Of a stretch of DNA of 64,000 nt, positions 1 through 13,319 are shown in pieces. The translations under genes were made by a program, and so were the position numbers. The stretch is from an uncultured bacterium (GTDB lineage Bacteria; Krumholzibacteriota; Krumholzibacteriia; WVZY01; JAKEHA01), in the NCBI GenBank assembly GCA_964588695.1, contig CAZPQK010000006.1, positions 196,239 through 260,238 of the forward strand, read 5' to 3'. Positions within the stretch are counted from its first letter, which is position 1. Each line of letters opens with the position of its first letter. A model generated the notes under the pieces. The model had not been told where the DNA came from and ran no database searches. It was given only the letters and a program-made list of their open reading frames with translations.

Positions 1-25
1 CAATCGCGCGCCAGCTGGTGGAGCA

Positions 26-805
26 CTACGAACGCTCAACGAAGGCCAGAAGTTCCTCCAAGGGAATGCGGTCGTCGGCAGACGGCACGGGAAAAGTGAT
101 TGAGTGTTCCGACCCCGGTTGAGGCCACCAAGCATCTTCACCACTGAAGTGCAACTGATTCTCTCCGAGCCCGTGCCATGCCCACCACTTCTTGTCCGAG
201 GCTTTGTGAATTCCATGCAACGCTGGTAGCTGCTCTTTCTTCTTCGTGTTCTTCGGTTTTGACCAGTACCACTCAAAATCGGAAGGCTCAAACACGGTCG
301 GAGCGTCACGTGTGCAGAGAGAGCGTTCGAAGTAGGTTACTTCACTACCCGGGAACACGAGCAGTCGGCTGTAAACAATCTCATCGAGTTGATACTTCTC
401 CAAGCTCTCTTTCGCGTGGTTGTTGCAGAACGCCATGATCGAGTCACCCAGTCTTTGTAGCCCTTTAGCCCCTTTTCGCGACCCTTCGATCAGGCGATCC
501 GCATTCGGAATCTTGGCTCGTTTCCATGTTACGGGCGTGGAGGCCTTCGTCGACTTTACCTGCCAACCTGCTTTTTCCTTTTGGTTTATCACATCGACGA
601 AATCGTAGGTGTCAAGCACAACTCCGGAGCGGACTATGCTTAGCACGGCTTCCATCAACGCTCCGGGAATCACGTCTGATGAGAACGGAAGTCGCAAGTA
701 CCCGCCTAGAATCCGCTTGATGCGATCCAATTGATCGGATGAAGACAACTGTGTCATGCTATCTCGGAGTACGGAATAGCTCGGCGTATGAAACATCGAA
801 CGCAA
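26..805 (-). CDS. Putative restriction endonuclease (R gene of a C-protein-controlled R-M module); product assignment tentative
   Basis: 259-aa ORF lies immediately downstream of, and overlaps by 47 nt, a textbook R-M controller (C) protein gene. In known C-regulated systems the C gene precedes and overlaps the R gene. No methyltransferase motifs (no DPPY/FxGxG) are present, so an R role is more likely than M. Residues DTYDFVDVINQKEK are compatible with a degenerate PD-(D/E)xK core. Confidence 0.45.
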   Translation of the reverse strand: MRSMFHTPSYSVLRDSMTQLSSSDQLDRIKRILGGYLRLPFSSDVIPGALMEAVLSIVRSGVVLDTYDFVDVINQKEKAGWQVKSTKASTPVTWKRAKIPNADRLIEGSRKGAKGLQRLGDSIMAFCNNHAKESLEKYQLDEIVYSRLLVFPGSEVTYFERSLCTRDAPTVFEPSDFEWYWSKPKNTKKKEQLPALHGIHKASDKKWWAWHGLGENQLHFSGEDAWWPQPGSEHSITFPVPSADDRIPLEELLAFVERS

Positions 806-971
806 GAGCTAGATCGGCTATAATAGTGACTGTCGGATTTCTGATCCCACGCTCGATGCCGCTGATATAGGTGCGATGAAGCCCACTCCTGTGTGCGAGT
901 TCCTCTTGCGACCAGCCGCGTTTCTCACGGAGGCGTCGAACGTTGAAGCCAACGAGGTTTTTTACGTCCAT
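759..971 (-). CDS. Restriction-modification controller (C) protein, XRE-family helix-turn-helix
   Basis: 70-aa protein carrying the hallmark LHRTYISGIERGIRNPTVTIIADLA segment (compare DRTYISGIERNSRN in C.Esp1396I-type C proteins). Tandem C-box operators sit 25 bp upstream of its start. Confidence 0.8.
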   Translation of the reverse strand: MDVKNLVGFNVRRLREKRGWSQEELAHRSGLHRTYISGIERGIRNPTVTIIADLALAFDVSYAELFRTPR

Positions 972-995
972 TGCCCTAGATGATCACAGAGCGCA

Positions 996-1021
996 GACCA
1001 TTGGTCTACAGACTATGAGTC
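996..1021. promoter_or_regulatory. Tandem C-box operators: GACCattGGTC - TACA - GACTatgAGTC
   Basis: Two adjacent palindromes with GAC(T/C)-N3-(A/G)GTC symmetry separated by TACA (TGTA on the coding strand). This matches the classic C-box architecture (GACT-N3-AGTC x2 with a TGTA centre), located directly upstream of the C gene. Confidence 0.65.
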
Positions 1022-2095
1022 ACATTGGATAGGATCAGCCCACAGAGACGTAGAGCTCTTATGTCTAGTATTAGGAGCTCTGTGGCCCGTTTCACTCGGC
1101 AACGTGCGCTCGCGCCAGACAGCGGTGGCAATGACCTTGCCGTCCTTGTTTCGCGTAGGGAACAGCCACTCCGTGCCGGGGTAGGCTTGGTCCCCAATCG
1201 CTAGTGATTCCCGAACAAGCGCAACCATGTATTCCGACAACGGCAAGTCGAACGGTTCGCCGCGCTTCATTTTCGGGATCGATATCGCCTGGTCGTCCAG
1301 ATGGAGCCATTCGCGCCGGAGGGAGACGAGCGTGCCCGGGCGGAGGCCGCTGAACAGGCCCAGCGTGTGCATGACGCGGCGTAGGGGATTGGGCAACGCC
1401 TGGACCTTTGCGTACCACTCGGGCAGTTCGTCGGGCAGCAGGACGCGCCCGGCCGAGCGGACCTTGTTGAACGTCACGGCCTGGACGGGATTGCCAGGCA
1501 GCGCGTCCGGGTCGTCAACCACGCGCAACGCAAGGTTGTATGCGGCGCGGAACAGGCGCATGGTGTTATTGGCGACAGCCTTGCCGTGACGCGTTGATAT
1601 CGTGCGGTGTTTCTCCCGCGCCATCGTGCGGGTAACTTCCGGTATCGGCAGCGTCTTCCAGTGCCGCAGGTAGCGGTCGACCTGCTTGAACATGTCGTCG
1701 ATTGTCCGGTCCGCGCACTCGCGTGCACGCAGGTCGTTACCGTATTCCTCGAACATCTGCTCGACCGACCACGCTTCCGCACCCGACGCACGTGCAGTCG
1801 CGTTCGGGTCGATGCCGCGGCGAATTTCGTTGAGCACTTCGGTTGCCTTTATGCGCGCTTCGTATAGCTTGAGATCGTCCGTGGTGCCCAGCGTGCGGCG
1901 CACCGTCTTGACCTTGCGCCGTCGGCCGTATTCGCCGACCCACAGGTCGCGCTGCACCTTGTACGACTTCGTGTGTTTGTGTACGGCGATCATCAAGCCG
2001 CGCACTTCCGTGTCGCGTACGACAATCGGTTTGCCGTCGTAAACAAGACGGCGAATGAATGCTTCGGTGAGTTTCGTTGGTGGCATGCGTAGCAC
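1013..2095 (-). CDS. Tyrosine recombinase/integrase (P4-like, N-terminal arm-binding domain); appears 3'-truncated
   Basis: N-terminus (LTEAFIRRLVYDGKPIVVRDTEVRGLMIAV) is typical of the DUF4102/P4-integrase arm domain. LRPGT (box I arginine) is present. The ORF ends at ...RHKSSTSLWADPIQ, just after the degenerate H-x-x-R region and before the expected LLGH...Y catalytic tyrosine segment. The stop codon abuts the C-box region. Confidence 0.7.
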   Translation of the reverse strand: MLRMPPTKLTEAFIRRLVYDGKPIVVRDTEVRGLMIAVHKHTKSYKVQRDLWVGEYGRRRKVKTVRRTLGTTDDLKLYEARIKATEVLNEIRRGIDPNATARASGAEAWSVEQMFEEYGNDLRARECADRTIDDMFKQVDRYLRHWKTLPIPEVTRTMAREKHRTISTRHGKAVANNTMRLFRAAYNLALRVVDDPDALPGNPVQAVTFNKVRSAGRVLLPDELPEWYAKVQALPNPLRRVMHTLGLFSGLRPGTLVSLRREWLHLDDQAISIPKMKRGEPFDLPLSEYMVALVRESLAIGDQAYPGTEWLFPTRNKDGKVIATAVWRERTLPSETGHRAPNTRHKSSTSLWADPIQCDS

Positions 2096-2263
2096 TCCTT
2101 AGCGAACCGTGTTACCTGCACTTGCGAACCGTTTGCGAACCGCGGTACAATGGGTTGCTTGCGGGCTCGTGAGGTAATTATGCTCGTAAGTCCTTGAAAA
2201 ACAAAGACTTTCAAGGGTGCTTAGGGGGCTCCCGGGGGCTTGCGAGGGCTTCTTCTAATCTGC

Positions 2264-2296
2264 AGGTCCCAGGTTCGAATCCTGGCGGGGTCGCCA
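2264..2296 (+). other. tRNA 3'-half remnant (T-stem CCAGG / TTCGAAT / CCTGG, acceptor CGGGGTC-G-CCA); probable att-site copy
   Basis: A perfect T-arm plus 7-nt acceptor strand, discriminator and CCA are present, but no complementary 5' acceptor strand (GACCCCG) or anticodon arm can be found upstream. It is therefore a fragment, as expected for the direct repeat left when an integrase-bearing island inserts into a tRNA 3' end. Confidence 0.5.
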
Positions 2297-2426
2297 TTCT
2301 CCACACTCGCCCATAAACCACACCCAGTTTTCCTCTAGTCGGGAACCAACGGCGTCGTCGCTACGTTACCCATATATTGGCCCGTCTGACCGTCCCTGGT
2401 TCATAACAATAGTTAAGAGGTGTTCG

Positions 2427-3632
2427 ATGAAACGTCGCCACTGGATCAATTGCATCGTCGTGGCAATAGTCGCGGTTGTCGCGGGCAGTACAACCGCATG
2501 TCGCCAGTCCACTGCGGACCAGGCCGATATCGACGCGTTTGCGGCGGCCGTCGGTGATCTGGCCAAAGAAATCGGATTACCGGGTATGTCGGCCGCGATC
2601 GTAAGGGACGGAGAGATGGTTTGGTCGGCCGGGTACGGTCATGCCGATGTCGAGCGGAACATTCTGGCACGCGCGGATACCCCGTACCGACTGGCGTCGC
2701 TTTCCAAGCCGTTCGCCGCGGTTATCCTGATGCAGTTGATGGAAGAGGGACGCGTGGAGCTGGATGGGCCGATGCGTGATTTCGCGGTTCATGCTTGGTT
2801 TGAACCCGGAGGCGGTTCTTGGGCGCATTATCCGTCTCGCTATGACGACGGCACTATTACCGTCCGACACATTCTGACGCACACCAGTCAGTCGGAGCCG
2901 CCTGGGTCGGCTTATGCTTACAGTGGAAACATCTTCGGCGACCTCACGTGGGTGATCGAAGACGCAGCGGGTCAGTCGTATCCCGTTGCCGTCCGCGATC
3001 GGATCCTCAAGCCGTTGCAAATGAACCGCTCGTGTCCGGGGCAGCTTGCGCCGTGGTGCGATGAAGTTGTCGGTGCACTCGCAAAACCTTACGACATTTC
3101 AAACGACTCATTGGTGGCAGGTACCTACCCCGGTTTCGGAGTCGATTCCGACGCTGACGTCACTGCCTGGGGGCTTGACCCGGCCTATCGACTGCCCGCT
3201 ACCACCCAGGACGCTCGGCGGAAAAGGCTTGGGAGTTCGTTTACGAGATTGTTCTCGTCGCAGTCGGCCGCGGGGATGATCTCGTCAGTTGAGGACCTGG
3301 CCAAGTTTGACATCGCGCTCGACGGAAACCGACTTGTGTCCAAGCAAAGTCGCGAACTGATGTTTACTGCAGCGCGCACACCGGATGGCGACGAGTTGCC
3401 GTACGGTCTCGGATGGTTCGTGGAGGACAACGACGGGACGAAGTTGGTCTGGCACTACGGCTGGTATCCGCCGACAGTTTCTGCACTCTACATAAAGGTC
3501 CCGTCGCGGCGCCTGTCGCTGATTCTGCTGTCCAACTGCGACGGGCTAAGCGCCGGGGTGTCCTGGTCGGCGCTCGGCGTCAAAGCCTCGCCGTTTGCGC
3601 GGCTCTTCCTGGAGCACTTCGCGGGCAACTAA
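2427..3632 (+). CDS. Serine hydrolase, beta-lactamase (class C / PBP4-like) fold, probable lipoprotein
   Basis: S-x-x-K motif (SLSKPF) follows AYRLASLSKPFAA. N-terminal signal peptide ends near ...VAGSTTAC. A GGAG-like RBS (AAGAGG) precedes the ATG. Confidence 0.8.
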   Translation: MKRRHWINCIVVAIVAVVAGSTTACRQSTADQADIDAFAAAVGDLAKEIGLPGMSAAIVRDGEMVWSAGYGHADVERNILARADTPYRLASLSKPFAAVILMQLMEEGRVELDGPMRDFAVHAWFEPGGGSWAHYPSRYDDGTITVRHILTHTSQSEPPGSAYAYSGNIFGDLTWVIEDAAGQSYPVAVRDRILKPLQMNRSCPGQLAPWCDEVVGALAKPYDISNDSLVAGTYPGFGVDSDADVTAWGLDPAYRLPATTQDARRKRLGSSFTRLFSSQSAAGMISSVEDLAKFDIALDGNRLVSKQSRELMFTAARTPDGDELPYGLGWFVEDNDGTKLVWHYGWYPPTVSALYIKVPSRRLSLILLSNCDGLSAGVSWSALGVKASPFARLFLEHFAGN

Positions 3633-3704
3633 GGGCAGGCAGGCCCTCGGCGCCTGTCGCGTTTGTGATCCGTCGATAAAAATTCTTGGAACCTCCCGGC
3701 GGTG

Positions 3705-3725
3705 ATAGTTGTATCATACAACTAT
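3705..3725. promoter_or_regulatory. Perfect 10-bp inverted repeat ATAGTTGTAT-c-ATACAACTAT, candidate MarR operator
   Basis: The palindrome sits 12 bp upstream of the marR start codon and overlaps the likely promoter/RBS region. MarR-family dimers bind such dyads. Confidence 0.55.
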
Positions 3726-3736
3726 CAGGAGGAGCC

Positions 3737-4231
3737 ATGTCCGCACGAACCACCGATATCGATCTCGACCGCGACGCGGAAGAACTTCACGCCGCCGTCC
3801 GAAGCTTGCTGCGCATCTACCAATTCCGCGACCGGCAGCGGACCTGCTACCACGACATCTCGGTTACCCAATGCTACGCGCTAGAGGCCCTGCAGGGTGG
3901 CGCGTTGCGGTTACTGGAGATTGCCGAGGCGCTGAATCTGGAGAAAAGTTCGGCAAGTCGAATGATCGACTCGCTGGAGGACAAGGGGTATGTGCGCCGG
4001 GCGGCCGATCCCAGCGACGGGCGCGCGAGTGTCATCGACATTACGCGGCGCGGGCAGGCGCTTCACGACAACATTGTGGCCGCGCTGGTTGACGAAAAGC
4101 GCGAACTACTCGCCGGGGTCGGCAAGGCGTCGCGACGGGCGGCGATTCGAATTATCAACGAACTATCGCGCTCCGCTGCGGAGCGTTTTAGCGACGAGTG
4201 TGCGCTCACCGAATTCAAAGAAGGACGCTAG
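3737..4231 (+). CDS. MarR-family transcriptional regulator
   Basis: Winged-helix region (TQCYALEALQGG...LAEALNLEKSSASRMIDSLEDKGYVRR..DPSDGRASVIDITRRG) is the MarR signature. Start is chosen at the ATG preceded by AGGAGG (3724-3729). A longer upstream ORF lacks an RBS. Confidence 0.85.
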   Translation: MSARTTDIDLDRDAEELHAAVRSLLRIYQFRDRQRTCYHDISVTQCYALEALQGGALRLLEIAEALNLEKSSASRMIDSLEDKGYVRRAADPSDGRASVIDITRRGQALHDNIVAALVDEKRELLAGVGKASRRAAIRIINELSRSAAERFSDECALTEFKEGR

Positions 4232-4232
4232 C

Positions 4233-5588
4233 ATGAAAACGATTTTCGCCGCGGGTTTGCTATTGATTTGCGTCGCTCCGACGGCGACGCCGCAGGTTGC
4301 CGAATGTTCGGACGCGTGCACAGAGGGTGCGCACAAGAGTGCCGCTACCTGCGAGCCGACGTCTGCGGTTTGCGGCCCGGCGTCATCGGCGTGCGGGGTC
4401 GCCACATCGGTTTGCGGGCCGGGGCAATCGTGCGGGACACTTGCGACGTTCGGCGTCGATCCAGCGCGACGGGTGGTTGCGCCTCAAACCGCGGCCACCA
4501 CGTTGCCGTTCAGGAACCTGGCATCTCTAATCGAGCCGGTACGCGCAAGCTATCGCGTTCCCGCGTTGGCGGTGGCGGTGTCGCGAACCGACGGAGTGGT
4601 TGCCGCCGGTGCGACCGGCGCGCGTATCGCCGGACACCCGCAGTCGGTAACACCGTTCGATCGTTTTCACCTGGGGTCGTGCGGTAAAGCGTTCACGGCC
4701 ACCGTCGCCGCGCGCCTGGTCGCGGCGAATCAAATCCGCTGGGAAACTACCGTGGCGGATGCGTTTCCAGAGTTGGTTGCCGATAACAATCCTTATCGCG
4801 ACGTTACGTTGCAACAACTGCTCGCGCATCGCTCGGGGCTACCGACCCGGTCCAACGCGATGATGCACGAAGCGTTGGGCTACACTGGCGATGCCATCGC
4901 GCAACGCGTTGCGTTTGTACGCATGGCGTTGTCGCTTCCCCCGGCCAGCGAACCGGGCACGACGTTCGGCTACACCGATGTGGGTTACACCGTCGCCGGC
5001 GCGATGTTAGAACGCGCGGCCGGAACATCCTGGGAAGAGCTGGTGCGCGAACACGTGCAAGCGCCGTTGGGTCTCACGAGTCTGGGCTTTGGCGAACCGG
5101 CAACCTTTGGCGGCACCGATCAACCCTGGGGACACATCGCCGAAGGCGATCGCATGGTGCCGTTCACGCCGGGGCCCAGCGCGAACGACGACAACCCGCC
5201 GGTGATTGGCCCGGCTGGCCTGGTGCACTTGTCGGTGGTGGATTGGGCGCGGTTCGCGGCGGCGCATCTAAGCGGCGCGCGGGGAGAGTCGCCCGATTCG
5301 TTTTTGTCGGCCGACGCGTTTGGCGTTCTTCACGCCGATTCATACTCGCAGGGTTACAGTCTCGGTTGGGGTGTTCAAACCACGGATCGCGGTCGCGGGC
5401 TTTCGCACACGGGATCGTGCGGGGAGTGGTATTCGCTGATTTGGATTTTACCCGACGCCGATCTTGCTATCGTGGTAGCAACGAACATTGGCGGCGGCAA
5501 TGCGGTTGCGGCCGCCAATGAAGCGTTGCAAGTGGTACTGACCGAAATCGAACAAGCCCCGTCGGCACGCGCCGCAGCCGACCACTAG
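4233..5588 (+). CDS. Serine hydrolase (beta-lactamase-related) with Cys-rich N-terminal module
   Basis: S-x-x-K motif SCGKAF. Signal peptide MKTIFAAGLLLICVAPTATPQVA, followed by a roughly 45-aa segment with 9 cysteines. Starts 2 nt after the marR stop, so the two genes form an operon. Confidence 0.8.
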   Translation: MKTIFAAGLLLICVAPTATPQVAECSDACTEGAHKSAATCEPTSAVCGPASSACGVATSVCGPGQSCGTLATFGVDPARRVVAPQTAATTLPFRNLASLIEPVRASYRVPALAVAVSRTDGVVAAGATGARIAGHPQSVTPFDRFHLGSCGKAFTATVAARLVAANQIRWETTVADAFPELVADNNPYRDVTLQQLLAHRSGLPTRSNAMMHEALGYTGDAIAQRVAFVRMALSLPPASEPGTTFGYTDVGYTVAGAMLERAAGTSWEELVREHVQAPLGLTSLGFGEPATFGGTDQPWGHIAEGDRMVPFTPGPSANDDNPPVIGPAGLVHLSVVDWARFAAAHLSGARGESPDSFLSADAFGVLHADSYSQGYSLGWGVQTTDRGRGLSHTGSCGEWYSLIWILPDADLAIVVATNIGGGNAVAAANEALQVVLTEIEQAPSARAAADH

Positions 5589-5589
5589 C

Positions 5590-6315
5590 CTATTCGTACC
5601 AGGCGGCCAGTCGGACTTCGATGTTCGGGTTCTTTGCGACCAGCTTTTTGAACTGCTCGACGTCGCTAAACCCACCCGATCCGCGGTAGTGATACGGATA
5701 CACTACCTTCGGTGCAAACTCCAGCACCGCACTTGCCGCCTGCTCGACGGTCATGGTGTAGGGAAGATTCATACACACAAACGCGTAGTCGATGTTCTTA
5801 AGCGCACGCATCTCAGGAATGTCTTCGGTGTCGCCCGACACGTAGACGCGTTTGCCCTGGTAGTTAACAACGTAACCGTTGCCGCGCCCCTTGGGATGAA
5901 ACTTCAACCGCTCTTCGGTTAAGTTGTACATCGCCACTGCGTCAATCTTGACATCTCCGACGGTGCGCGACGCGCCGTTGGCCAGCGTCTCGCCCAACTC
6001 CAACCGCTCTTGCACCGCTGCCCCCGCAATGACGACGGTGTTTTCGCCCGCGAGTTCGTGCACTAGTTTCACGGCCAGGTGGTCGGGGTGAATGTGGGTA
6101 ATCAAAATAATATCCGGAGTACCAAATCGTTGAAAGCGCTCTGGGGATCCGACGGGATCGACCAGAATCATCGCGTCGCCGGCTTCAATTGCCAGCGTAC
6201 CGTGTTCGATGGGATGAAAGGTAAATGGCGCATCGCTGTGATGGTCGGCCACCACCCCGGCGGGGATGAGTGCGAACAGGCCTACGAGAAGTAGAGTGGT
6301 AAGTTGGCGGCTCAC
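5590..6315 (-). CDS. MBL-fold metallo-hydrolase, secreted
   Basis: HxHxDH motif (THIHPDH). Start is placed at a GTG preceded by AGGAGG (revcomp of 6321-6326). Signal peptide SRQLTTLLLVGLFALIPAGVVA. Confidence 0.75.
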   Translation of the reverse strand: MSRQLTTLLLVGLFALIPAGVVADHHSDAPFTFHPIEHGTLAIEAGDAMILVDPVGSPERFQRFGTPDIILITHIHPDHLAVKLVHELAGENTVVIAGAAVQERLELGETLANGASRTVGDVKIDAVAMYNLTEERLKFHPKGRGNGYVVNYQGKRVYVSGDTEDIPEMRALKNIDYAFVCMNLPYTMTVEQAASAVLEFAPKVVYPYHYRGSGGFSDVEQFKKLVAKNPNIEVRLAAWYE

Positions 6316-6439
6316 AGGTTCCTCCTGGTTGGATGTCACTATTGCTAGTAGATACCCCGCCGAGGCGGCGAGGTGTTCCTTTGTCACGCGTGGTCCACGG
6401 GTCGGATGACAGTTCGACAGCGCCCGAAAGCGCGACGAG

Positions 6440-6469
6440 ACGGGGCGCCAGTCAAGCCCGGCGCCCCGT
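6440..6469 (-). terminator. GC-rich hairpin (ACGGGGCGCC / GGCGCCCCGT) downstream of the 6483..7634 gene
   Basis: Perfect 10-bp stem with a 10-nt loop. The U-tract is weak. Confidence 0.3.
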
Positions 6470-6482
6470 TTAATGCGGGTAA

Positions 6483-7634
6483 CTAGTCTACCAGATTTAA
6501 CTTAGCCTCCAATTCGGCCAGGCGAGCCCGCAGTTCGGCTAGTTCGCTGCGAACATCGCCGCCCCGATTGATGGGCTGGCTCGATGCGATTGTCGGGCCG
6601 GGCTTGCCCAGGCTGGCCGCATCGGCATCTGGGCCATCAGTGGTTAGTTGCGGGGTAACGATCCCATAGGCGTTCTCAAAATAGATGAGGTTGAGCGTCC
6701 GGTCGCCGACACTGGCACTACCACCATTGCTACCTCGCTCCCCGTTCATGTAGAAAGTGTTGCTGCCGGCGGTAACGGGGTAAATTGCCTGCGCCGTGGC
6801 CGGAAACGTGTAGGTTCCGGAGCCGGCGTTGTCGGGTACCTGAACGATCATGGTCTGGTTGGTCGGCAGTGTGCTAGGCGAGGTCGATGTACCAATCCAA
6901 GCGTAAGTTGGCAATCCATTAGAGTGGTTCAGGAAAATGTGGCACGTCGCGATCGCTAGTACGTAACCATCTCCCGGACAGTTTATGTTTAGTGTAACCA
7001 GGTTGTTAATCGTGCCCGGCCCGGTAAGCCCGCCTGACGTTACGCCCTTTTGGCTCGCGACACCCGGGTCGTTGCCGCTGCCGCCACCTCCGGTCGCAGA
7101 TATCGTGATGTTGCTACCGCTAGGCACAACGGTCATGCCCGTGCCCGCTAGCAGGTTGACATTGTCGGTGAGGCCGTTCAGCGAGCGGATCGCGGTGCCA
7201 TTTGCCATCTTCGTTGATATCACGGCATTGTTGGCAAGCTTGTTAGTGGTAACCGTGCCGTCCTCCACGCTTAGCGCGTTGATCGCGTAAGGCGTGGCGC
7301 TTAGTTCCGTACGCGGCGTCATCTCCGGGTCTGCGTTTACGGTGATTCCCAGCCAGTACGGCTCGTCAAAGTTCACGGCGGTGAGCGGAATATTGCTACC
7401 CAATATCGCTTCAAAACGACCATTGGTAACTGGTAGATTCTGAAACTCCAACCAAATCGGCGAGCCTCCGGCCGCAACTGTGTAAAGACGAAACCCGAGT
7501 GAGTAGTTACCATCCGCCACCGGAGTTCCGGCGTTGTCGGTTAGTACTCCCTGGTAGGAAAACGTACGCGGCGGATCGGCGCTCGCCGGCAGTGCAACCA
7601 AAAATAAAACTAGAGCAGCGATGATGTATTTCAT
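6483..7634 (-). CDS. Secreted Gly/Thr/Asn-rich beta-rich protein, tail-fibre-like, with C-terminal coiled coil
   Basis: Signal peptide MKYIIAALVLFLVALPASA. Low-complexity G/T/S/N repeats. C-terminal ELAELRARLAELEAKL heptads resemble phage tail-fibre / S74 chaperone-type ends. Confidence 0.55.
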   Translation of the reverse strand: MKYIIAALVLFLVALPASADPPRTFSYQGVLTDNAGTPVADGNYSLGFRLYTVAAGGSPIWLEFQNLPVTNGRFEAILGSNIPLTAVNFDEPYWLGITVNADPEMTPRTELSATPYAINALSVEDGTVTTNKLANNAVISTKMANGTAIRSLNGLTDNVNLLAGTGMTVVPSGSNITISATGGGGSGNDPGVASQKGVTSGGLTGPGTINNLVTLNINCPGDGYVLAIATCHIFLNHSNGLPTYAWIGTSTSPSTLPTNQTMIVQVPDNAGSGTYTFPATAQAIYPVTAGSNTFYMNGERGSNGGSASVGDRTLNLIYFENAYGIVTPQLTTDGPDADAASLGKPGPTIASSQPINRGGDVRSELAELRARLAELEAKLNLVD

Positions 7635-7668
7635 TGGAATAGTCTCCGAGTTCCGGTTTGAGCTGTGG

Positions 7669-8202
7669 TTACTTCAAGAGCACGAGTTTGCGCGACGTCA
7701 CAAAGCCAGGTGCTTCGATGCGGTAGAAGTACACGCCGCTGGCCAGTGAAGAGCCGTCGAACGGCACAACGTAGATGCCGCCGGGGCGCGATTCATTAAC
7801 TAACTCCGCAACCTCCGCACCGTTCACGTCAAAGATGCGAAGAACAACATGCGATTCTCGCGGCAACGCAAACCGAATCGTTGTTGTGGGGTTAAACGGG
7901 TTCGGGTAGTTCTGGTCCAGGCGAAATGTCTGCGGGAGAAGAGGGTTGTCACCGATGCTGGTTGGAAAGTTGCCCGGAGGTTCCCAAAATCCGTTAAGCG
8001 ATCCAAAGTTGGTGCTAGTGGCAGAGCCGATGGCCGCCTGACCGGCGGTTCCTAGTATCTGGTAGTTAGTACTCGAAGCGGTCGTCGCGCCGCTTGACGC
8101 AACTTGCTTCTGTAAACTGGTTTGAGCCGAAGTCAATCGAGGCGGAGCTACAAAGACCATAGCCAGGACAACGGTCAACCATAGGCCAGGGGGTGTTTTC
8201 AT
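7669..8202 (-). CDS. Small secreted protein with T9SS type-A C-terminal sorting domain
   Basis: Signal peptide. C-terminal LDQNYPNPFNPTTTIRF...GVYFYRIEAPGFVTSRKLVLLK is the canonical Por-secretion CTD. Confidence 0.8.
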   Translation of the reverse strand: MKTPPGLWLTVVLAMVFVAPPRLTSAQTSLQKQVASSGATTASSTNYQILGTAGQAAIGSATSTNFGSLNGFWEPPGNFPTSIGDNPLLPQTFRLDQNYPNPFNPTTTIRFALPRESHVVLRIFDVNGAEVAELVNESRPGGIYVVPFDGSSLASGVYFYRIEAPGFVTSRKLVLLK

Positions 8203-8352
8203 CTAAAGATGCCTCCTGCGCCGATAAGCGCGCTGTGTTGTGACCGAGACGTTAATATCATACCACCGCTACTGCTACCGACTCCAGAGTTCTAGCGCTC
8301 AAGCTCGTTGTTTCCGGGGTGCATGCGGTAAACCCAGGCTGGGGCACAAGGC

Positions 8353-9180
8353 TTGCTGAGTCCAATGTCGCCCACTTGCTATGCGTTGCCAGACCGCGTA
8401 GAATTAAATGCTATATCCGGCAACTCGGTTGCCATCGCCCAACTTACGCATTATCCGGAAGGGCAGGCTAGCGTGACGCAGGACGCCGCCAGCAGAAAAG
8501 AATGGTACGGAACCGGGGTCTATAGCTCCAAAATGGGGCTCTACACCGGTGGGTTTGAGCAGGCTGTGATTGCCCAGGAACTCGATCGCATCGGCACCAA
8601 CGTTTCGGTGCTCGACGTCGGCGGCGGCGATGGGCGAAACGCCGTTTTCGCCAAAGAGGTCGGGCACGATCCCGTTCTTTTGGAGTACGAGCCGCTACCG
8701 TTGCAACTGTTTTTGGAACGCGGTGTCACGCTTCCCGCCGTGCAAGCGAGTGGCATGGAGTTGCCGGTGGCCGACGGTTCGTTTCAAGCCGTCATGACCA
8801 TCGGCGTTAGCGCGTGCTTTACCGGCCAGGATGATATTAACGTTCGGTTTTTTGCAGAAGTGCATCGCGTATTGAAACCCGGTGGATTATTTCTGTTAAC
8901 CGCGCACAACAAAGGTTCGTACATCGGGCGCATTCGTCAGACTCACGGCGAAGGGCCCGGTTGGGCGGGCTACTACACCGACGATTGCGACGACTACTCG
9001 CGAAAACTTAACGCCGCCGGTTTCGACATCACCGCGTGTCACGGGTATCGCTGGTTGCCGTTTCCACACAACTCAAACAACCCGCTCATTCCCGCGTTGG
9101 CATTGGTTGAAAAAGTGCTTCCTCTGCGACGTAGCACCAGATTTAGTCCGTGGCTTTTCTTTGTCGCGCGAAAACGCTAA
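8353..9180 (+). CDS. Class I SAM-dependent methyltransferase (paralog 1)
   Basis: Motif I VLDVGGGDGRN and post-I LELPVADGSF. Clear paralog of the next gene, with colinear similarity through YRWLPF...FSPWLFFVARKR. The true start may be an internal GTG near 8474 (alignment with the paralog begins at KEWYG). Confidence 0.7.
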   Translation: MLSPMSPTCYALPDRVELNAISGNSVAIAQLTHYPEGQASVTQDAASRKEWYGTGVYSSKMGLYTGGFEQAVIAQELDRIGTNVSVLDVGGGDGRNAVFAKEVGHDPVLLEYEPLPLQLFLERGVTLPAVQASGMELPVADGSFQAVMTIGVSACFTGQDDINVRFFAEVHRVLKPGGLFLLTAHNKGSYIGRIRQTHGEGPGWAGYYTDDCDDYSRKLNAAGFDITACHGYRWLPFPHNSNNPLIPALALVEKVLPLRRSTRFSPWLFFVARKR

Positions 9181-9210
9181 CCCCGTGCGACTCGCCCTTT
9201 CAGGATCCGC

Positions 9211-9918
9211 ATGACCACCGCGACATCAACCGCAGAATGGTACTGGCTAAAGTCGTGTCGTTCGCGCATGGGCGTGTACACCGGCCGTATCGAGCAGGCG
9301 CTGATTGCCAAGTACCTGGCAGCCGAAGGAAGTAACCTAAGTGTGCTGGATGTCGGCGGCGGTTCCGGTCGCAACACCACGTTTGTAAAGTCACTGGGGC
9401 ATCGCCCCACGTTGCTAGAGTTTAACGGCGTTCCTATAAACTTGTTTCGGGAAGAACACGCCGACATTCCTGCCGTGCAGGCGAGCGGGTTAGAGCTTCC
9501 GGTAGCCGACGCGTCGTTCGACGCGGTCATCACCATCGAAGTGACCGTGTGTGTAACCGGTGAGAACGGCGCCAACGAGCGCTTCTTTCCCGACGTGCAT
9601 CGCGTGCTTAAAGCCAACGGCCTGTTTTTGTTGACCGTGTCCAACGGCGACTCGTACGTGGGGAACATAAAAAAGCGTGATCCCAACCTGGCCGACTACG
9701 AGACCGCGTACTACCACGACGGGTTTAACGACTACATGCGCAAGCTCGACGATGCCGGGTTTGTTGTGGAGGCATGTATCGGCTACCGCTGGATTCCGTT
9801 TACCCGCGATTCGGACAGTGCGTTAATTCCGGTGCTCGCCGGCGTCGAAAAGGCCCTGCAGTTGCGTCGCTTGCCACGATTTAGTCCGTGGGTTTTCATC
9901 GCCGCCCGCAAGCGGTAG
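9211..9918 (+). CDS. Class I SAM-dependent methyltransferase (paralog 2)
   Basis: VLDVGGGSGRN, LELPVADASF, C-terminal YRWIPF...FSPWVFIAARKR. Tandem duplicate of the 8353..9180 gene. Confidence 0.8.
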   Translation: MTTATSTAEWYWLKSCRSRMGVYTGRIEQALIAKYLAAEGSNLSVLDVGGGSGRNTTFVKSLGHRPTLLEFNGVPINLFREEHADIPAVQASGLELPVADASFDAVITIEVTVCVTGENGANERFFPDVHRVLKANGLFLLTVSNGDSYVGNIKKRDPNLADYETAYYHDGFNDYMRKLDDAGFVVEACIGYRWIPFTRDSDSALIPVLAGVEKALQLRRLPRFSPWVFIAARKR

Positions 9919-9927
9919 CAATCGCCA

Positions 9928-10983
9928 CTATCCCAGGTGGCGATACACCATCCGCCCGGCCCACCGAGATGCAAATCCCGGCGCATGATGCACGAACGTT
10001 TTCATGAGTCGGTACTTAAGGCTGTCTTCGGTCGTCGACGTTACGCCCTCGACGGGCGGAAGGTAGTAGTAGGGAAGCGTGTATTCGCGAGTGCCCCACA
10101 GTCGCTTGAAGTTCACGAGTCCCTTGTTGTCGGGTGACGTGCGACCAAAGTCGTACTGTTTGACACCATGCTCGCAAGCGTACTCCATCCCCTTCCACAC
10201 CAGAAAGTGATTGCCGCGAAACTCGGCAAAGTCGGTGTTGGATCCGGTGTACTTGTGAATCAGCAGGTCCTTGAAGTGAAAATAAACGTTGGCCGAGATC
10301 GGTTCGTCGCCGCGATAGGCAACGGTCACAAAGCCATAGCCCTTGGATATGACACGCTTCCAGATGTTGTGAAACAAGACAAACGGCTGAGGGATCATGC
10401 CGTGTTTGGTTCGTGTTAACAGGTTCAGCCGGTAGAACGTTTTAACATCGTCAAGCGAAGTGCCCTGGTGGAACCGCAAGTGGGGAAGGCATTTGTTACG
10501 CACGTACTGGCGCGCCCGCTTGCCGAACCGTGCGGTTAATTCGTCAAAATCGCCGCTAATGTCGGTGACGAACGTGTTGTAGTAGTCGTGTGTCGACAGT
10601 TGGTGGTTGGCGAGGACATCCGGCGGATACTCCGCGCGCAGTTCGATGTACCGCGCCTTGTCTTGTCGCTGAACTTCTATCGCGGCCGCAAGCAACGCCC
10701 GCAGGTGTTCGGCATCTTCGGCCAACGGAGGACATTCGTCTACGAACGGCACCGATACCACGCGATTGCCGGTCAGAAAGCTCCTAATCAACACCAGTGC
10801 CATGCCCGCGACAATTTCGTCGCTGCGCTCGACCGCCAAATAGCGCGGACGATAGCCATAGGTGTCGGCCAGGACGTGGGTCCACATTGAGGTGTGCACG
10901 AACGTGCCCTTCGTGTGGCGCTCCACAAACGTGTCCCAACGCGGGTCGGTCCGCGGGTCGATGGTAGTGACTTGTGTGTTCAC
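9928..10983 (-). CDS. FemAB-like / GNAT-fold acyltransferase (peptide- or aminoacyl-transferase family), tentative
   Basis: 351-aa protein whose size and overall pattern match the FemABX/CelD-like acyltransferase family. Assigned by composition only. Confidence 0.5.
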   Translation of the reverse strand: MNTQVTTIDPRTDPRWDTFVERHTKGTFVHTSMWTHVLADTYGYRPRYLAVERSDEIVAGMALVLIRSFLTGNRVVSVPFVDECPPLAEDAEHLRALLAAAIEVQRQDKARYIELRAEYPPDVLANHQLSTHDYYNTFVTDISGDFDELTARFGKRARQYVRNKCLPHLRFHQGTSLDDVKTFYRLNLLTRTKHGMIPQPFVLFHNIWKRVISKGYGFVTVAYRGDEPISANVYFHFKDLLIHKYTGSNTDFAEFRGNHFLVWKGMEYACEHGVKQYDFGRTSPDNKGLVNFKRLWGTREYTLPYYYLPPVEGVTSTTEDSLKYRLMKTFVHHAPGFASRWAGRMVYRHLG

Positions 10984-10997
10984 AAAAAAATGAACCG

Positions 10998-13256
10998 CTA
11001 GAAGCGAATCAAGTAGGAGTACTTGATAAAGAACTGGCGGCTGTCGTTGAGCAGGGTGTTGCGGGTGCGGCGCAATTCCCGCGGGTCAAGGTCTTCCAAT
11101 AGTTCCACGTTGCGATAGTTCGTATTCATACCAACATACAACGCCGTCCACGGATTGACCAGATAAGTAAACAGAAGGTCGCCGTTAAGGTTCCGGTCTC
11201 GGGTTTCGGACGTCAGGCTGCCGTTAACGTCGGTTTGCTCGTATTCGACGATCGCACGCACCGACAGCTCGCGGTTGAACTGATACCCAAGCCGTGCTCG
11301 AGCGATTTGATCGCGCAGGATGCGATCGCCGGTGCCTTCCTGGTTTAGCTGGAACAACGAATACAGGACGTCAAAACTGACATTCGTGCTGGGCTTAAAC
11401 GCCAACCCAAGTTCGCCGGCGTAGCGGTTGGCCAACTCGGGCTGCTCACCACCGGGCGGGTCGAAGTTAATGACTTTGCCCGCGTCAACTTCGATTTCGG
11501 TGACGAGTTCGTCGGTAATGTCGGTGCCAAAGTATCCGTAAAAGTTAAACGGGTCGTACTCGCGAACTTCCATAAGCGATGCAAAGTCGATTGGCCGTAG
11601 CCACTCGCGACGGGTCGTGGCCTGCAAAGCGACGCTGGTTTCGCGAACAAACTCGCCGTGCATGGTGAGTTCGTAGATTTCATCAAGCTTGGTCCCGTCG
11701 TGGTCCCACACCGATTGGTGGTACCATTCCGGGCCCCAGGCCAGCACAACATCGCCGGCGGTGCGGACACGATACGACCCCGACCAGTGAATGTCGCGCA
11801 AGTCAACGCGGGGAACAAAACCGGTAAGCGTTGCGAAATCCCGGCCAATGTCCTGGTAATGCACGTGCGTCCGAAAATGTTGCCCCGACCGATCAAATCG
11901 CCAGCTAACCGCAGGGTCTTCGATCTGCGTACCGTCATCGGTTTCTGTAACGCTGTGAATGGCCTGAAAGTTGGTGGTCCAGGTGGGAGTAAGTTTAATG
12001 CGACCGTCGATACCGCCGACGCGGTTGAATCCGCCGGCGAACTCTCGGTCGGTAAAGATCGCGCCGAGGTTCGACTGGTCCATGATGTCGCGACTAACTC
12101 GAGCCACACCAAAGTACGCGCTCTCGCCGTAGTTGGGATCGTCGGGTGAAAGGCTGTTGCCAGCGCCCTCGTCGTCGGCCAGGAGCAGACCCACCGCCCA
12201 CGGCCCCAGCTTGCCGGTCAAGCGACCGCCGGCGCGCGGGTCGCTAATCCGTCGGGTAAACAGCAAGTTGTATTCGCCCTCAAAGTAATTCGCGTTCTCC
12301 AGAAAGAACGGTCGCTGCTCCGGGAAGAACACTTCGAAGCGTTCGTTGACTGTCACCTGCGGTTGGTCCGATTCGACATGGCTAAAGTCCGGGTTCACCG
12401 TCAGGTCAAATACCAGCTTGTCTTTGATTACGGCTTTAAGGTCGAAGCCAGCTTCGGCCTCGCCATCGTCTTTAAATCTTGGACCGTTGGGGTGGCCTTC
12501 GTCGATCAGGCGAAAGGTCCGCGCCGTTCCATACGGGACAAACAGAATGTTGCGTCCGGGTGTAATCTCGTCGTCGATTCGCAGCGTCGCGGCCTGGTTC
12601 AGCCGGCCCTCAACACGGCTCGATACCGGCGGCCAGAATGCTTGTTCGGAATCGCGGCGAATTTCGCGGAGCACAATAAGCCCCCACTCTTGCGACGGCG
12701 CGGGATCGAAACGGAGGCTCTTAAAAGGAATCGCCATTAACACGACGTATCCGGAATCGGTGATAGCGCCTTCCGAATGCCAAACCGTGTCGAAGGAATC
12801 GTCAAACCCCAGACCTTCGGTCCAAATGGCGTCCCATTGCACACCGAGCGGGTTGCAGACAAACGCGATGGCCCGGCGTTGGTCGTTAAATGTGTCGAGC
12901 ATGATCTCGACGATGTCGTCGTGGAACAACGACTCGCGCGGCGATAAGCGACCGCGCACGCGGTCGGGTGCGTTGTCGTGAGCAACAAAGACGACATAGA
13001 GGTTGTTGTGATCGCGGCCCAGGTAAACGTCGGTGCGTTGCGTGCACGGCTCACCGTCTGCGGGTTCGCGCTGAATCAAACCCGTGACGTGGGCCATTTG
13101 TTTCGCGGTCGCCGTTGCTGCTGTCATGGAGCGGAAGTCGTCCAGGCGAGGTGCGGTCAAAAGTAGCGGGACAGTCACCGACGGGCGCTGTGGTTGCGCT
13201 AGTGCAGATGTGGTGAGGCCAGCTAGCGCAATTAGGGTGGGGCCGAAAATACGCAT
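10998..13256 (-). CDS. Outer-membrane beta-barrel protein with N-terminal CBM9-like domain (DUF5916-like)
   Basis: Signal peptide ...SALAQP. 752 aa. Alternating beta-strand pattern with a terminal aromatic residue (...YLIRF), typical of OM barrels. Confidence 0.55.
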   Translation of the reverse strand: MRIFGPTLIALAGLTTSALAQPQRPSVTVPLLLTAPRLDDFRSMTAATATAKQMAHVTGLIQREPADGEPCTQRTDVYLGRDHNNLYVVFVAHDNAPDRVRGRLSPRESLFHDDIVEIMLDTFNDQRRAIAFVCNPLGVQWDAIWTEGLGFDDSFDTVWHSEGAITDSGYVVLMAIPFKSLRFDPAPSQEWGLIVLREIRRDSEQAFWPPVSSRVEGRLNQAATLRIDDEITPGRNILFVPYGTARTFRLIDEGHPNGPRFKDDGEAEAGFDLKAVIKDKLVFDLTVNPDFSHVESDQPQVTVNERFEVFFPEQRPFFLENANYFEGEYNLLFTRRISDPRAGGRLTGKLGPWAVGLLLADDEGAGNSLSPDDPNYGESAYFGVARVSRDIMDQSNLGAIFTDREFAGGFNRVGGIDGRIKLTPTWTTNFQAIHSVTETDDGTQIEDPAVSWRFDRSGQHFRTHVHYQDIGRDFATLTGFVPRVDLRDIHWSGSYRVRTAGDVVLAWGPEWYHQSVWDHDGTKLDEIYELTMHGEFVRETSVALQATTRREWLRPIDFASLMEVREYDPFNFYGYFGTDITDELVTEIEVDAGKVINFDPPGGEQPELANRYAGELGLAFKPSTNVSFDVLYSLFQLNQEGTGDRILRDQIARARLGYQFNRELSVRAIVEYEQTDVNGSLTSETRDRNLNGDLLFTYLVNPWTALYVGMNTNYRNVELLEDLDPRELRRTRNTLLNDSRQFFIKYSYLIRF

Positions 13257-13319
13257 AGATTGATCTTAACACGCCGCGCCGGACTTGACAACTCGTTGGG
13301 GTAGAGCGGCTTATGGTCG

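Follow-up and report, generated by a model that had tools for sequence, protein, structure and literature searches.

A Truncated Integrase and a Split tRNA-Arg(UCU) Gene at the Probable Right End of a Decayed Integrative Element

Genes and Features of the Locus

The window analyzed here, a 64,000-nucleotide stretch of a metagenome-assembled contig from an uncultured bacterium, carries at its left edge part of a gene island, the features of which are listed in Table 1. An exact match to the neighboring β-lactamase-family protein led to a second locus, L001, which extends the window leftward by 7.5 kb and is 100% identical to it over the shared 13,632 bp. Together, the window and L001 provide a combined sequence of 71 kb for searches. 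Three samples contain the L001 contig, and positions 1731–3970 of the window recur with 100% identity in an independent run (L002), which spans the junction from the integrase gene (int) through the right attachment site (attR) to the β-lactamase-family gene (bla). The island comprises an ORFan (orf230), a tRNA gene, a 100-residue open reading frame (orf100), a putative C-controlled restriction–modification (R-M) cassette composed of the M, R, and C genes, and a dead integrase gene. No family match was found for orf100 or orf230 in Pfam, NCBIfam, or PADLOC, and a homology search with orf230 returned itself alone.

C-controlled type II R-M systems of the PvuII, AhdI, and Esp1396I type have a small helix-turn-helix controller gene upstream of and co-oriented with R, a GACT-N3-AGTC C-box before C, and a related half-site at the start of M, which is convergent. 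The cassette of the island shares the orientation of C and R, the C-box, the half-site at the M start, and the convergent M gene. It differs from these systems in its R protein, which belongs to an uncharacterized family of ~245 residues with no Pfam or PDB match. The M protein matches Pfam DNA_methylase (E = 1.2e-60) and NCBIfam dcm (E = 7e-49), and shares 63% identity with the M protein of the same C-R/M cassette in two other loci, L071 and L072. Searches of Pfam, NCBIfam, PADLOC, and PDB sequences with R returned no match. There are 875 homologues of R, of ~245 residues, covering 100% of the version present here, and L071/L072 contain a 64% identical homologue in the same C-R > < M arrangement. 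R is thus a putative endonuclease, assigned by its conserved position. Upstream of the C gene, AATGTGACTCATAG..CTGTAGAC is kept in L071, and a half-site related to the C-box, ACTATGAGT, overlaps the start codon of M both here and in L071. The cassette is conserved as a unit in L071/L072, where no tRNA accompanies it. A Vsr gene, absent here, adjoins the homologous cassette in L071.

Table 1. Features of the island and its right flank (window positions unless L001 is given)
Feature	Position	Strand	Description
C5 cytosine DNA methyltransferase (M), 3′ end	1..122	+	gene runs from L001 6488 to 7696 (= window 122)
Putative restriction endonuclease (R), 243 aa	26..757	-	converges on M, 97 bp overlap
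Controller (C) protein, 70 aa, helix-turn-helix	759..971	-	Pfam HTH_3 E = 2e-19; PADLOC Control_protein E = 3.4e-16
C-box operator region upstream of the C gene	995..1021	.	GACTATGAGTC at 1011-1021; near-palindrome AGACCATTGGTCT at 995-1007
Truncated tyrosine integrase	1013..2086	-	335 homologous codons, 22 unrelated codons, TAG; Pfam, alignments
Novel joint	1080..1081	.	integrase homology to 1081; leftward from 1080, unrelated DNA into the R-M control region
Three arm-type repeats, P arm	2102..2143	+	GCGAACCGT at 2102-2110 and 2124-2132; GCGAACCGC at 2135-2143; direct-repeat family D1
Core-proximal P arm	2224..2251	+	GGGGGCT / GGGGGCT / AGGGCT repeats; element DNA, not tRNA
Common core CTTCTAA, tRNA-Arg(UCU) anticodon loop	2252..2258	+	the only repeat at both island ends; presumed crossover region
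Displaced 3′ half, host tRNA-Arg(UCU)	2259..2296	+	TCTGC anticodon-stem strand, variable loop, T arm, CGGGGTC acceptor strand, G, CCA
Host flank	from 2297		β-lactamase-family gene at 2427-3632; Pfam
Intact tRNA-Arg(tct)	L001 5752-5828	same orientation as fragment	ARAGORN; 72.8 bits on the Rfam tRNA model

The integrase reading frame is listed as 1013–2095 from a GTG codon; its likeliest start is the ATG at 2086, which yields the 357-residue database protein P0001. The frame contains an Arm-DNA-bind_3 domain (PF13356, E = 6.6e-9) and a Phage_integrase domain (PF00589), the latter matched at 31 bits against a cutoff of 27.1 and over profile positions 3–105 of 172 only. The box I region with the first catalytic Arg is retained, and its GLRPGTL stretch is conserved with respect to homologues. 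In an alignment to eight full-length homologues (397–410 residues), similarity reaches ...LPSETGH and then ceases. The homologues continue with ILRHTYRT...LLDH...GVY(I/V)HE, and the closest relative, P0002 (90% identical), reads on as ETGH-ILRHTYRT, whereas in the stump 22 unrelated codons (RAPNTRHKSSTSLWADPIQCDS) follow before a stop. At the DNA level, a blastn comparison of window positions 941–1200 (minus strand) with two related loci, L008 and L006, places the end of homology at query base 120, corresponding to window position 1081. Homology is lost beyond this base in all three frames and at the DNA level, and the truncation is therefore not a frameshift. The missing C terminus was not found in any downstream frame, nor by tblastn across L001 and the whole window (71 kb), which indicates that a deletion occurred. 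A simple insertion splitting int was rejected on the same observation. The reading frame is, as judged by domain matches and alignment, a pseudogene-like stump of a true member of the tyrosine recombinase family.

The original prediction of a truncated integrase thus stands, and no homologue stops at the same position. Its proposal that an R-M cassette or a deletion had replaced the 3′ end of int holds for the deletion, the sequence being absent from the 71 kb; the R-M cassette may have been inserted into int or may already have traveled as cargo of the element. The stop codon does touch the C-box, TAG (1013–1015) lying within the 11-bp element. The degenerate H-x-x-R box that had been described is not found: of box II, the His of H-x-x-R alone is kept, and the rest of the motif, the second His, and the catalytic Tyr are absent. 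The letters after this His are therefore junk sequence beyond the breakpoint.

Two Orphan tRNA Halves and an Intact tRNA

At the right edge of the island, the tRNA-derived stretch opens with the anticodon loop CTTCTAA, the first base of which is 2252. Positions 2264–2296 of this stretch contain the variable loop, a T arm with 5/5 pairs and the loop TTCGAAT, and an acceptor strand of 7 nt, which is followed by the discriminator G and CCA. No full tRNA is called at the fragment by ARAGORN, and the Rfam tRNA model has no match there at E ≤ 10. No full cloverleaf folds over 2220–2296, and the folding of 2205–2296 is no better than that of shuffled sequence (z = 0.94). The DNA preceding the core, 2224–2251, fails to pair with the anticodon-stem strand TCTGC; the core-proximal repeats within it are conserved in L008 and L006, and AGGG-type repeats are present in remoter relatives. 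Matches of the Rfam mascRNA model to the fragment and to the tRNA of the island are far under the gathering threshold and were set aside as tRNA-like noise.

An orphan 5′ half, GGCCCCGTAGCTCAGCTGGATAGAGCAGCAGA-CTTCTAA, is located at L001 4802–4840 (39 nt), 4,992 bp left of the fragment and 2.7 kb left of the window. Its strands GCAGA (anticodon stem) and GGCCCCG (acceptor) are the exact complements needed by TCTGC and CGGGGTC of the fragment, and joining the 5′ half to the 3′ half of the window results in a 77-nt tRNA-Arg(tct) cloverleaf with all stems paired. Because two pieces 5 kb apart form a perfect tRNA-Arg(UCU), the resemblance of the fragment to tRNA is far above chance, and because both halves are orphans that fit perfectly, the host gene must have been split at its 7-bp anticodon loop and left unrestored. 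The fragment is, on the evidence of this pairing, the 3′ half of the host tRNA-Arg(UCU) gene itself, now displaced.

The two ends of the island read ...GCAGA-CTTCTAA-GCCGAGG (attL) and ...GGGCTT-CTTCTAA-TCTGCAG (attR), and a functional tRNA is called at neither by ARAGORN or Rfam. The crossover presumably took place within CTTCTAA. In addition to the three arm-type repeats of the P arm, two further copies are found in the P′ arm, at L001 4905–4924, and the triplet directly upstream of int is kept in nearly all relatives. For a P4-like integrase with an arm-binding domain, these repeats constitute putative arm-type sites on both sides of the core. With the matching 5′ half at L001 4802–4840 as its left boundary, the island is ~5.0 kb rather than 4.0 kb in length. 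Contigs of genomes scanned with the neighbor protein for an empty site gave matches of ≤61% identity, with no nearby tRNA and no syntenic relative, and the exact 24-nt pattern of the right junction has zero matches in metagenome contigs.

A second, intact tRNA-Arg(tct) is situated between the two host halves, 4,042 bp left of the fragment and 1.75–1.82 kb left of window base 1. It lies behind the ORFan, with the P′ arm repeats ~830 nt away. It is the sole match to the Rfam tRNA model within L001 4600–10000, and ARAGORN calls no other tRNA-Arg within the window. The DNA upstream of it shows no sigma-70-like promoter. The 3′ half of this tRNA is 76% identical to the fragment over 46 nt, and the two have only CTTCTAA and GGGTCGCCAT in common. 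In chimeras of the island tRNA with the gene formed by the fragment and its 5′ half, two of the five anticodon-stem pairs are broken in both combinations. Most likely, to judge from this arrangement, the island tRNA was brought by the element and serves as the replacement of the host gene. A crossover at GGGTCGCCAT, the 3′ end common to both, with an element-borne fragment, was considered and dropped in view of the orphan 5′ half and the host-specific 3′ halves seen in relatives.

These features agree with the original prediction of a T arm, acceptor strand, and CCA with no adjoining 5′ half, apart from the fragment in fact starting at 2252, and with its proposal that the fragment marks the edge of an island carrying the R-M genes, for which an attachment-site junction is present at the right edge. 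An intact tRNA was expected a few to tens of kilobases to the left in the same orientation, and one exists there, but its 3′ end is not identical to that of the fragment. The view of the fragment as a direct-repeat copy of this 3′ end does not hold at the identity observed, with the fragment's own 5′ half located elsewhere.

Relatives of the Element

Both ends of the element are visible in two relatives, L048 and L053 (integrases 56% identical). At the far end of each, a host 5′ half ending in CTTCTAA is followed by ~70 nt with two GCGAACCGT repeats and by a complete, different tRNA-Arg(tct), which begins 13 nt past the arm repeats. At the int end, the host 3′ half is found, and the paired halves rebuild perfect tRNAs. 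The common cores are 10 bp in L048 and 9 bp in L053. This evidence from both ends comes from two relatives, both distant; no relative with an integrase of 70–90% identity shows both ends. At the int end, the pattern is general: a T arm, acceptor strand, and CCA lie 160–235 nt upstream of int, divergently oriented, in 38 of the 43 evaluable relatives, with the loop CTTCTAA in 29 of these and an Arg-CCU loop in 6. The stems of these fragments vary by host, with compensating changes. A different arrangement is visualized in L067 (Sulfitobacter), in which a full copy of the 3′ half is present at the far end. L067 is thus apparently of the restoring type, so that not every member of the family follows the replacement strategy. 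No replacement tRNA is present within 10 kb of int in the Sulfitobacter and Roseicitreum genomes.

Besides int, intact relatives have genes for HTH_17, a DUF5906 or VapE primase, and a resolvase; none of these three is present here. Phage structural or lysis genes are found neither in the island nor in the 10 kb after int of relatives, which contain HTH_17, primase, resolvase, and small open reading frames, and only two relatives are on viral contigs (IMG/VR). From this gene content, the intact elements look like small satellite-type or mobilizable elements rather than recognizable phage. Roseobacter-type bacteria are among the hosts of the relatives.

Origin of the Island and Comparison with Known Systems

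The locus is probably the right-hand end (attR) of an integrative element of ~5.0 kb, now decayed, that inserted into the tRNA-Arg(UCU) gene of the host at its anticodon loop. In the proposed history, a member of a widespread family with a P4-like integrase, three P-arm sites near int, and two sites in the P′ arm would have recombined at the 7-bp CTTCTAA. The target gene would not have been rebuilt, the host 5′ half being stranded at the far end and the 3′ half beside int, and the complete, distinct tRNA-Arg(UCU) inside the island would have taken over its function. A later deletion from integrase codon 336 onward may then have fused what was left of the integrase gene to the control region of the putative C-regulated type II R-M cassette, with C and R on the minus strand and M convergent; the genes for excision and replication that relatives have are missing as well. 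The order of these events, the arrival of the island tRNA with the element, and its role as the working, or even the only, tRNA-Arg(UCU) of the cell are inferred. With a dead integrase, the island has no means of excising itself. Two things probably hold it there: the takeover of the host function by its tRNA and the resistance of R-M systems to loss.

In a canonical island, the intact tRNA would have been rebuilt from a host 5′ part and an element-borne 3′ part, and 2252–2296 would be the displaced direct-repeat copy. This is the usual layout of islands that target tRNA genes (PMC4383910, PMC7192596), L067 seemingly uses it, and the intact tRNA-Arg(UCU) at 4,042 bp has the isotype and orientation that it calls for. 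It is nevertheless very improbable here: the divergence of the two copies, the two stem pairs that are broken when the 5′ half of the intact tRNA is combined with the fragment, and the perfectly fitting orphan 5′ half, which lies another 950 bp leftward with arm-type repeats after it, all argue against it. An artifact, by mis-assembly of unrelated metagenomic pieces or by a sequencing frameshift that mimics a truncation, is just as remote. The contig is metagenome-assembled, and other short integrase variants of the family (P0005, P0040) are found on short contigs, but the recovery of an identical contig from several samples, its agreement with the independent run, the disappearance of homology in every frame beyond 1081, and the exact match of the tRNA halves across 5 kb are at odds with such an origin.

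Less easily dismissed, yet still unlikely, is a composite origin, in which the int element split the host gene and a separate event delivered the intact tRNA-Arg, along with the R-M genes or on another element; the tRNA would then not belong to the strategy of the element family at this locus. An interval of ~830 nt, which holds an ORFan, separates the tRNA from the P′ arm repeats, compared with 13 nt in L048 and L053, and the tRNA could therefore have come separately. The GC content of L001 5000–8500, which includes orf230, the tRNA, and the R-M genes, is ~50–60% compared with 60–67% in int, and the locus has clearly been rearranged. However, bacteria commonly have a single gene for tRNA-Arg(UCU), and a cell in which this gene is split would need a replacement at the moment of integration. 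Moreover, the replacement tRNA belongs to the element in both relatives with visible ends, and the homologous R-M cassette is found elsewhere with no tRNA. The preferred reading is insertion of a single element that most likely carried its own tRNA-Arg.

The strategy itself is already known from a few phages, and the locus is instructive rather than a new kind of island scar. In the tRNA-dependent lysogeny of actinobacteriophages, described for Fionnbharth, Cluster L, and Gaia (Guerrero-Bustamante & Hatfull, mBio 2024, PMC10865867), the element also carries a complete tRNA of the same isotype, the common core is similarly short (7 bp here), the junctions contain no functional tRNA, and close integrase relatives restore the target (Boilgate in that system and apparently L067 in this one). 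The element described here differs in being no recognizable phage, in its P4-like Arm-DNA-bind_3 integrase, in its uncultured hosts, and in being known from sequence alone. In addition, with the integrase active site lost, the tRNA replacement is fixed, unlike in the actinobacteriophages. With the island as the most likely supplier of the replacement, "tRNA-dependent" integration, experimentally known only in mycobacteriophages, extends to a broad non-phage family in environmental bacteria.

Similar disruption of a target that is left unrestored and supplanted by an element-borne homologue has been termed "gene replacement" for integrative elements, including a tmRNA-encoding island in the Rhodobacter tmRNA gene and islands in hrpB (PMC7192596), and host tRNA genes in Sinorhizobium meliloti have been substituted by phage-related sequences (PMC11476347). 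Those elements have other targets and integrases, whereas here the decay of the integrase freezes the event and an R-M module accompanies it. The locus would thereby offer a concrete example of how a foreign gene can supplant a core tRNA gene and become fixed once the integrase decays.

A broader proposal, which we advance tentatively and hold to be nearly as probable as not, is that a widespread family of small integrative elements other than actinobacteriophages, with P4-like integrases, make themselves indispensable by splitting tRNA-Arg(UCU) at its anticodon loop and supplying their own copy. The present locus would be an end point of this process, with a dead integrase, a native gene permanently supplanted by the foreign tRNA, and an R-M module as passenger. 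Such elements would then be a route for the horizontal replacement of core tRNA genes and, with an R-M cassette, a double "addiction" device.

A dead integrase beside a tRNA fragment is by itself a routine island scar, and it is the anatomy that is the useful point. The canonical tRNA- and tmRNA-gene islands mapped by Islander and TIGER (PMC4383910, PMC7192596) likewise have a tyrosine integrase gene at one end by att, a tRNA target, a displaced fragment that marks an end, and crossovers at the symmetric anticodon stem-loop. In these islands, the target is restored by an attP-borne fragment with a direct repeat of tens of base pairs, whereas the repeat here is 7 bp and both halves are orphaned. 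If the broader proposal is correct, tools that match each fragment to the closest intact tRNA would systematically mis-map islands of this type; here, an Islander-type search would pair the wrong tRNA and place the left end ~950 bp off.

A tRNA-Arg gene split around the island

The segment at window 2252-2296 begins with an anticodon loop, CTTCTAA (anticodon UCU), and ends with an acceptor strand, discriminator and CCA end, CGGGGTC-G-CCA; between them lie the anticodon-stem 3′ strand TCTGC, the variable loop AGGTC and the T arm CCAGG-TTCGAAT-CCTGG. ARAGORN finds no complete tRNA here, the sole tRNA of the whole window being tRNA-His at 22529, the Rfam tRNA model gives no match at E ≤ 10 at the fragment, and the fold of 2205-2296 is not better than that of shuffled sequence. 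The Rfam model of a tRNA-like RNA, mascRNA-menRNA, has sub-threshold matches at window 2228-2292 and L001 5752-5824; on the fragment, GCTCCCG (2228-2234) in the G+C-rich P-arm DNA is paired with the acceptor strand, at 6/7 positions and by chance.

The sequence to the left is provided by L001, a 45-kb contig found in three samples, which encodes the same beta-lactamase-family protein as window 2427-3632. Window 1-13632 is 100% identical to L001, which extends a further 7,574 bp leftwards (adding 7574 to a window coordinate gives that of L001), and window 1731-3970 is also covered by a second, independent 2.2-kb contig. As the original prediction had anticipated, an intact tRNA, tRNA-Arg(UCU), lies to the left (72.8 bits on the Rfam tRNA model). 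The fragment had also been expected to copy the end of this tRNA. The two 3′ halves are only 76% identical, with just CTTCTAA and GGGTCGCCAT in common. In addition, the strands of the intact tRNA match one another (acceptor GACCCTG/CAGGGTC, anticodon stem CCAGC/GCTGG), and the fragment demands different partner strands, GCAGA and G(G/A)CCCCG. The fragment therefore does not duplicate the end of the intact tRNA.

Its partner is an orphan 5′ half further left, GGCCCCGTAGCTCAGCTGGATAGAGCAGCAGA-CTTCTAA, in which GCAGA and GGCCCCG occur exactly as predicted. Together with window 2259-2296 it forms a 77-nt tRNA-Arg(UCU) whose acceptor has 7/7 pairs (one G-U) and whose D (4/4), anticodon (5/5) and T (5/5) stems are fully paired. 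In chimeras with the island tRNA, two of the five anticodon-stem pairs are broken and the acceptor stem is weaker, with a mismatch in one chimera and a G-U wobble in the other. The two copies of the common 7-bp core are 4,992 bp apart, a complete tRNA of the same isotype lies between the halves, and arm-type repeats are present in both arms; those after the orphan 5′ half read GCGAACGT...GCGAACCGT, their starts 12 nt apart, as in the related locus L048. The host tRNA-Arg(UCU) gene is thus split here and not rebuilt, and a complete tRNA, most likely its replacement, lies inside the element, as in L048 and L053. An empty site was found neither by scanning genome contigs with the neighbour protein nor by searching metagenome contigs for the junction pattern. 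Upstream of the island tRNA, a scan for the sigma-70 consensus detected no promoter (weak evidence; the consensus may not be the host's).

Features of the island and of complete tRNAs beside the P arm in related loci
Feature	Position	Strand	Remark
Host 5′ half + core	L001 4802-4840		outside window
P′ arm repeats	L001 4905-4924		outside window
ORFan, 230 aa	L001 5017-5709	+	between P′ arm and island tRNA; N-terminal hydrophobic segments; no homologue but itself among 5.8 billion proteins
Replacement tRNA-Arg	L001 5752-5828	+	outside window
ORF, 100 aa	L001 6137-6439		outside window; no match
C5 methyltransferase (M)	L001 6488-7696		up to window 122
Putative endonuclease (R)	window 26-757	-	
C protein	window 759-971	-	
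C-box	window 995-1021		
Integrase stump	window 1013-2086	-	
Novel joint	window 1080/1081		
P-arm repeats	window 2102-2143		
Core	window 2252-2258		
Host 3′ half	window 2259-2296		
Complete tRNA (Met-CAT or Pro-TGG)	L003/L017 9789-9865; L005 253-326; L020 9781-9858		beside P arm

Element ends in the integrase family

Contexts were surveyed in 51 metagenome loci, two IMG/VR loci and several more by exact look-up. A near-universal layout is observed upstream of, and divergent from, int: three GCGAACCGT repeats, a spacer of ~100 nt, AGGG-rich repeats, and (A)CTTCTAA with a tRNA 3′ half ending in CCA. A scripted search for a T arm paired throughout and closed by a TTC(G/A)A loop, an acceptor strand and CCA recovered all three in 38 of the 43 loci that could be evaluated, among which there are mutual duplicates; CTTCTAA is present in 29 of the 38 and an Arg-CCU loop in six. 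Two variant loci excepted, ARAGORN finds no complete tRNA at the int-proximal junction of relatives. The tRNA stems differ between loci with compensating changes, and the int-side halves are therefore real and host-specific. The order at this junction is P arm, core, host 3′ half.

Two relatives only, both distant, include the far end (L048 and L053, integrases 56% identical). Both mirror the island locus, with a complete tRNA-Arg(UCU) at 7.8 and 10.3 kb from the int start, two GCGAACCGT repeats immediately upstream of it and, ~70 nt further out, an orphan 5′ half ending in CTTCTAA, which forms a perfect tRNA-Arg(UCU) with the int-proximal 3′ half. In these loci too, the host gene is split without rebuilding and a complete replacement tRNA is carried on the element. 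The tRNA lies 13 nt from the arm repeats in both, versus ~830 nt in the island.

Other arrangements are also seen. In relatives whose integrases are 70-74% identical, a complete tRNA takes the place of the Arg 3′ half, with its 5′ end directly against the conserved P arm. From int up to and including the T stem, L003 and L005 have the same sequence, and they part only in the 3′ strand of the acceptor, which suggests that such variants may provide three-quarters of the target tRNA, counted from its 5′ end, with the crossover close to the T loop. At the far end of L067 (Sulfitobacter donghicola, 20640-20750), a full tRNA-Arg(CCU) 3′ half copy, with several differences from the int-proximal one, lies immediately beyond the 3′ end of another integrase gene; the locus resembles the restoring type and would also be a tandem array, with two elements in the same tRNA gene.

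In canonical tRNA-gene islands, the target is restored from an attP-borne fragment (PMC4383910, PMC7192596); this defining feature was tested in the present island and is absent. The anatomy instead matches the "tRNA-dependent lysogeny" of mycobacteriophages, in which the core is short, the target is not reconstructed and a same-isotype phage tRNA is required for lysogeny (PMC10865867); in those phages, as apparently in the island's family, sister elements use the restoring mode. The island also matches the "gene replacement" nuance of integrative elements (PMC7192596) and tRNA substitution in Sinorhizobium meliloti (PMC11476347, PMC12429752). The strategy is already known, and this locus adds a differing integrase group, a non-phage element type, different hosts and a frozen state.

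The truncated integrase and the history of the locus

The integrase ORF contains the PF13356 arm-binding domain and only the first 60% of the PF00589 tyrosine-recombinase catalytic domain (Pfam; profile positions 3-105 of 172). It has 455 homologues in a database of 5.8 billion proteins; among the matches listed, these are 369-496 aa long, barring a few short or partial entries, and most span ~93% of the query. In an alignment, identity to eight full-length homologues lasts up to ...WRERTLPSETGH, with none beyond. Past this break, the homologues read ILRHTYRTIAQRVGIDKIDARLLLDH.VPGIDGVYIHE..., comprising the H-x-x-R Arg, the second His and the catalytic Tyr, and the closest relative (P0002, 90% identical) likewise goes on ETGH-ILRHTYRT; the window integrase has 22 unrelated codons and then TAG at 1013-1015, and its active site is lost. 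Because DNA-level homology to two relatives ends exactly at 1081, the other two reading frames hold no integrase-like sequence, and five integrase C-terminal segments have no tblastn match in the window or the 7.5 kb to its left, the integrase is truly truncated, by DNA loss and not by frameshift or simple insertion. With neither a complete tRNA at the fragment nor homologues ending naturally at this position, the predicted pairing of a truncated integrase with a tRNA 3′ half lacking its 5′ half holds. The start is likely the ATG at 2086, giving 357 aa, equal to P0001, the database copy of this protein.

In two other family members, P0005 (352 aa) and P0040 (298 aa), homology likewise ends ahead of the catalytic C terminus, each time at a different position, which may reflect recurrent decay or, alternatively, contig-end artefacts. 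The joint is spanned by an inverted repeat at window 1040-1085, CCACAGAG / CTCTGTGG, which encloses GAGCTCT repeats, and a third copy of CACAGAGC lies at 985-992; the repeat may fold as a hairpin or represent microhomology at the joint.

Intact relatives of the element carry int, HTH_17 (AlpA/Xis-like), DUF5906 or VapE primase and resolvase genes and small ORFs; one has a C5 methyltransferase, 29% identical, ~10 kb from int. The locus is most simply explained by an internal deletion that began at integrase codon 336 and ended just upstream of an R-M cassette which the element already carried as cargo. Alternatively, the cassette may itself have been inserted, with an accompanying deletion. As to mechanism, strand exchange would have occurred within CTTCTAA, and the island tRNA probably arrived with the element and now would serve as the cell's tRNA-Arg(UCU). 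With Arg-II, His and Tyr missing from Int, the island should be unable to excise itself, and the native gene could then not re-form. Loss of the island would be counter-selected by both the tRNA and the R-M system.

The putative restriction-modification cassette

C is an HTH protein (Pfam) that also matches the PADLOC "Control_protein", and M is a dcm-type methyltransferase. R, a presumed restriction endonuclease assigned by its conserved position, matches no family or structure in Pfam, NCBIfam, PADLOC or the PDB; its 875 homologues of ~245 aa are "hypothetical" proteins, two JGI entries being mis-named "ribosomal protein L24E". In L071/L072, a 64% homologue of R is found in a like C-R > < M cassette, adjoined by a Vsr gene, and the chromosomal surroundings are unrelated. 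These loci retain the operator AATGTGACTCATAG, and the half-site ACTATGAGT, which lies over the M start codon (L001 6485-6498) and upstream of C (window 1012-1025), is kept over the M start in L071. Because arrangement, operator and half-site recur, the cassette is a self-contained unit. The placement and conservation of the half-site suggest that C may also repress M. A sigma-70-like TTGCCG-16-TATACT is located at L001 6460-6487. The convergent R and M genes overlap at their 3′ ends by 97 bp (window 26-122), and by ~94 bp in L071/L072.
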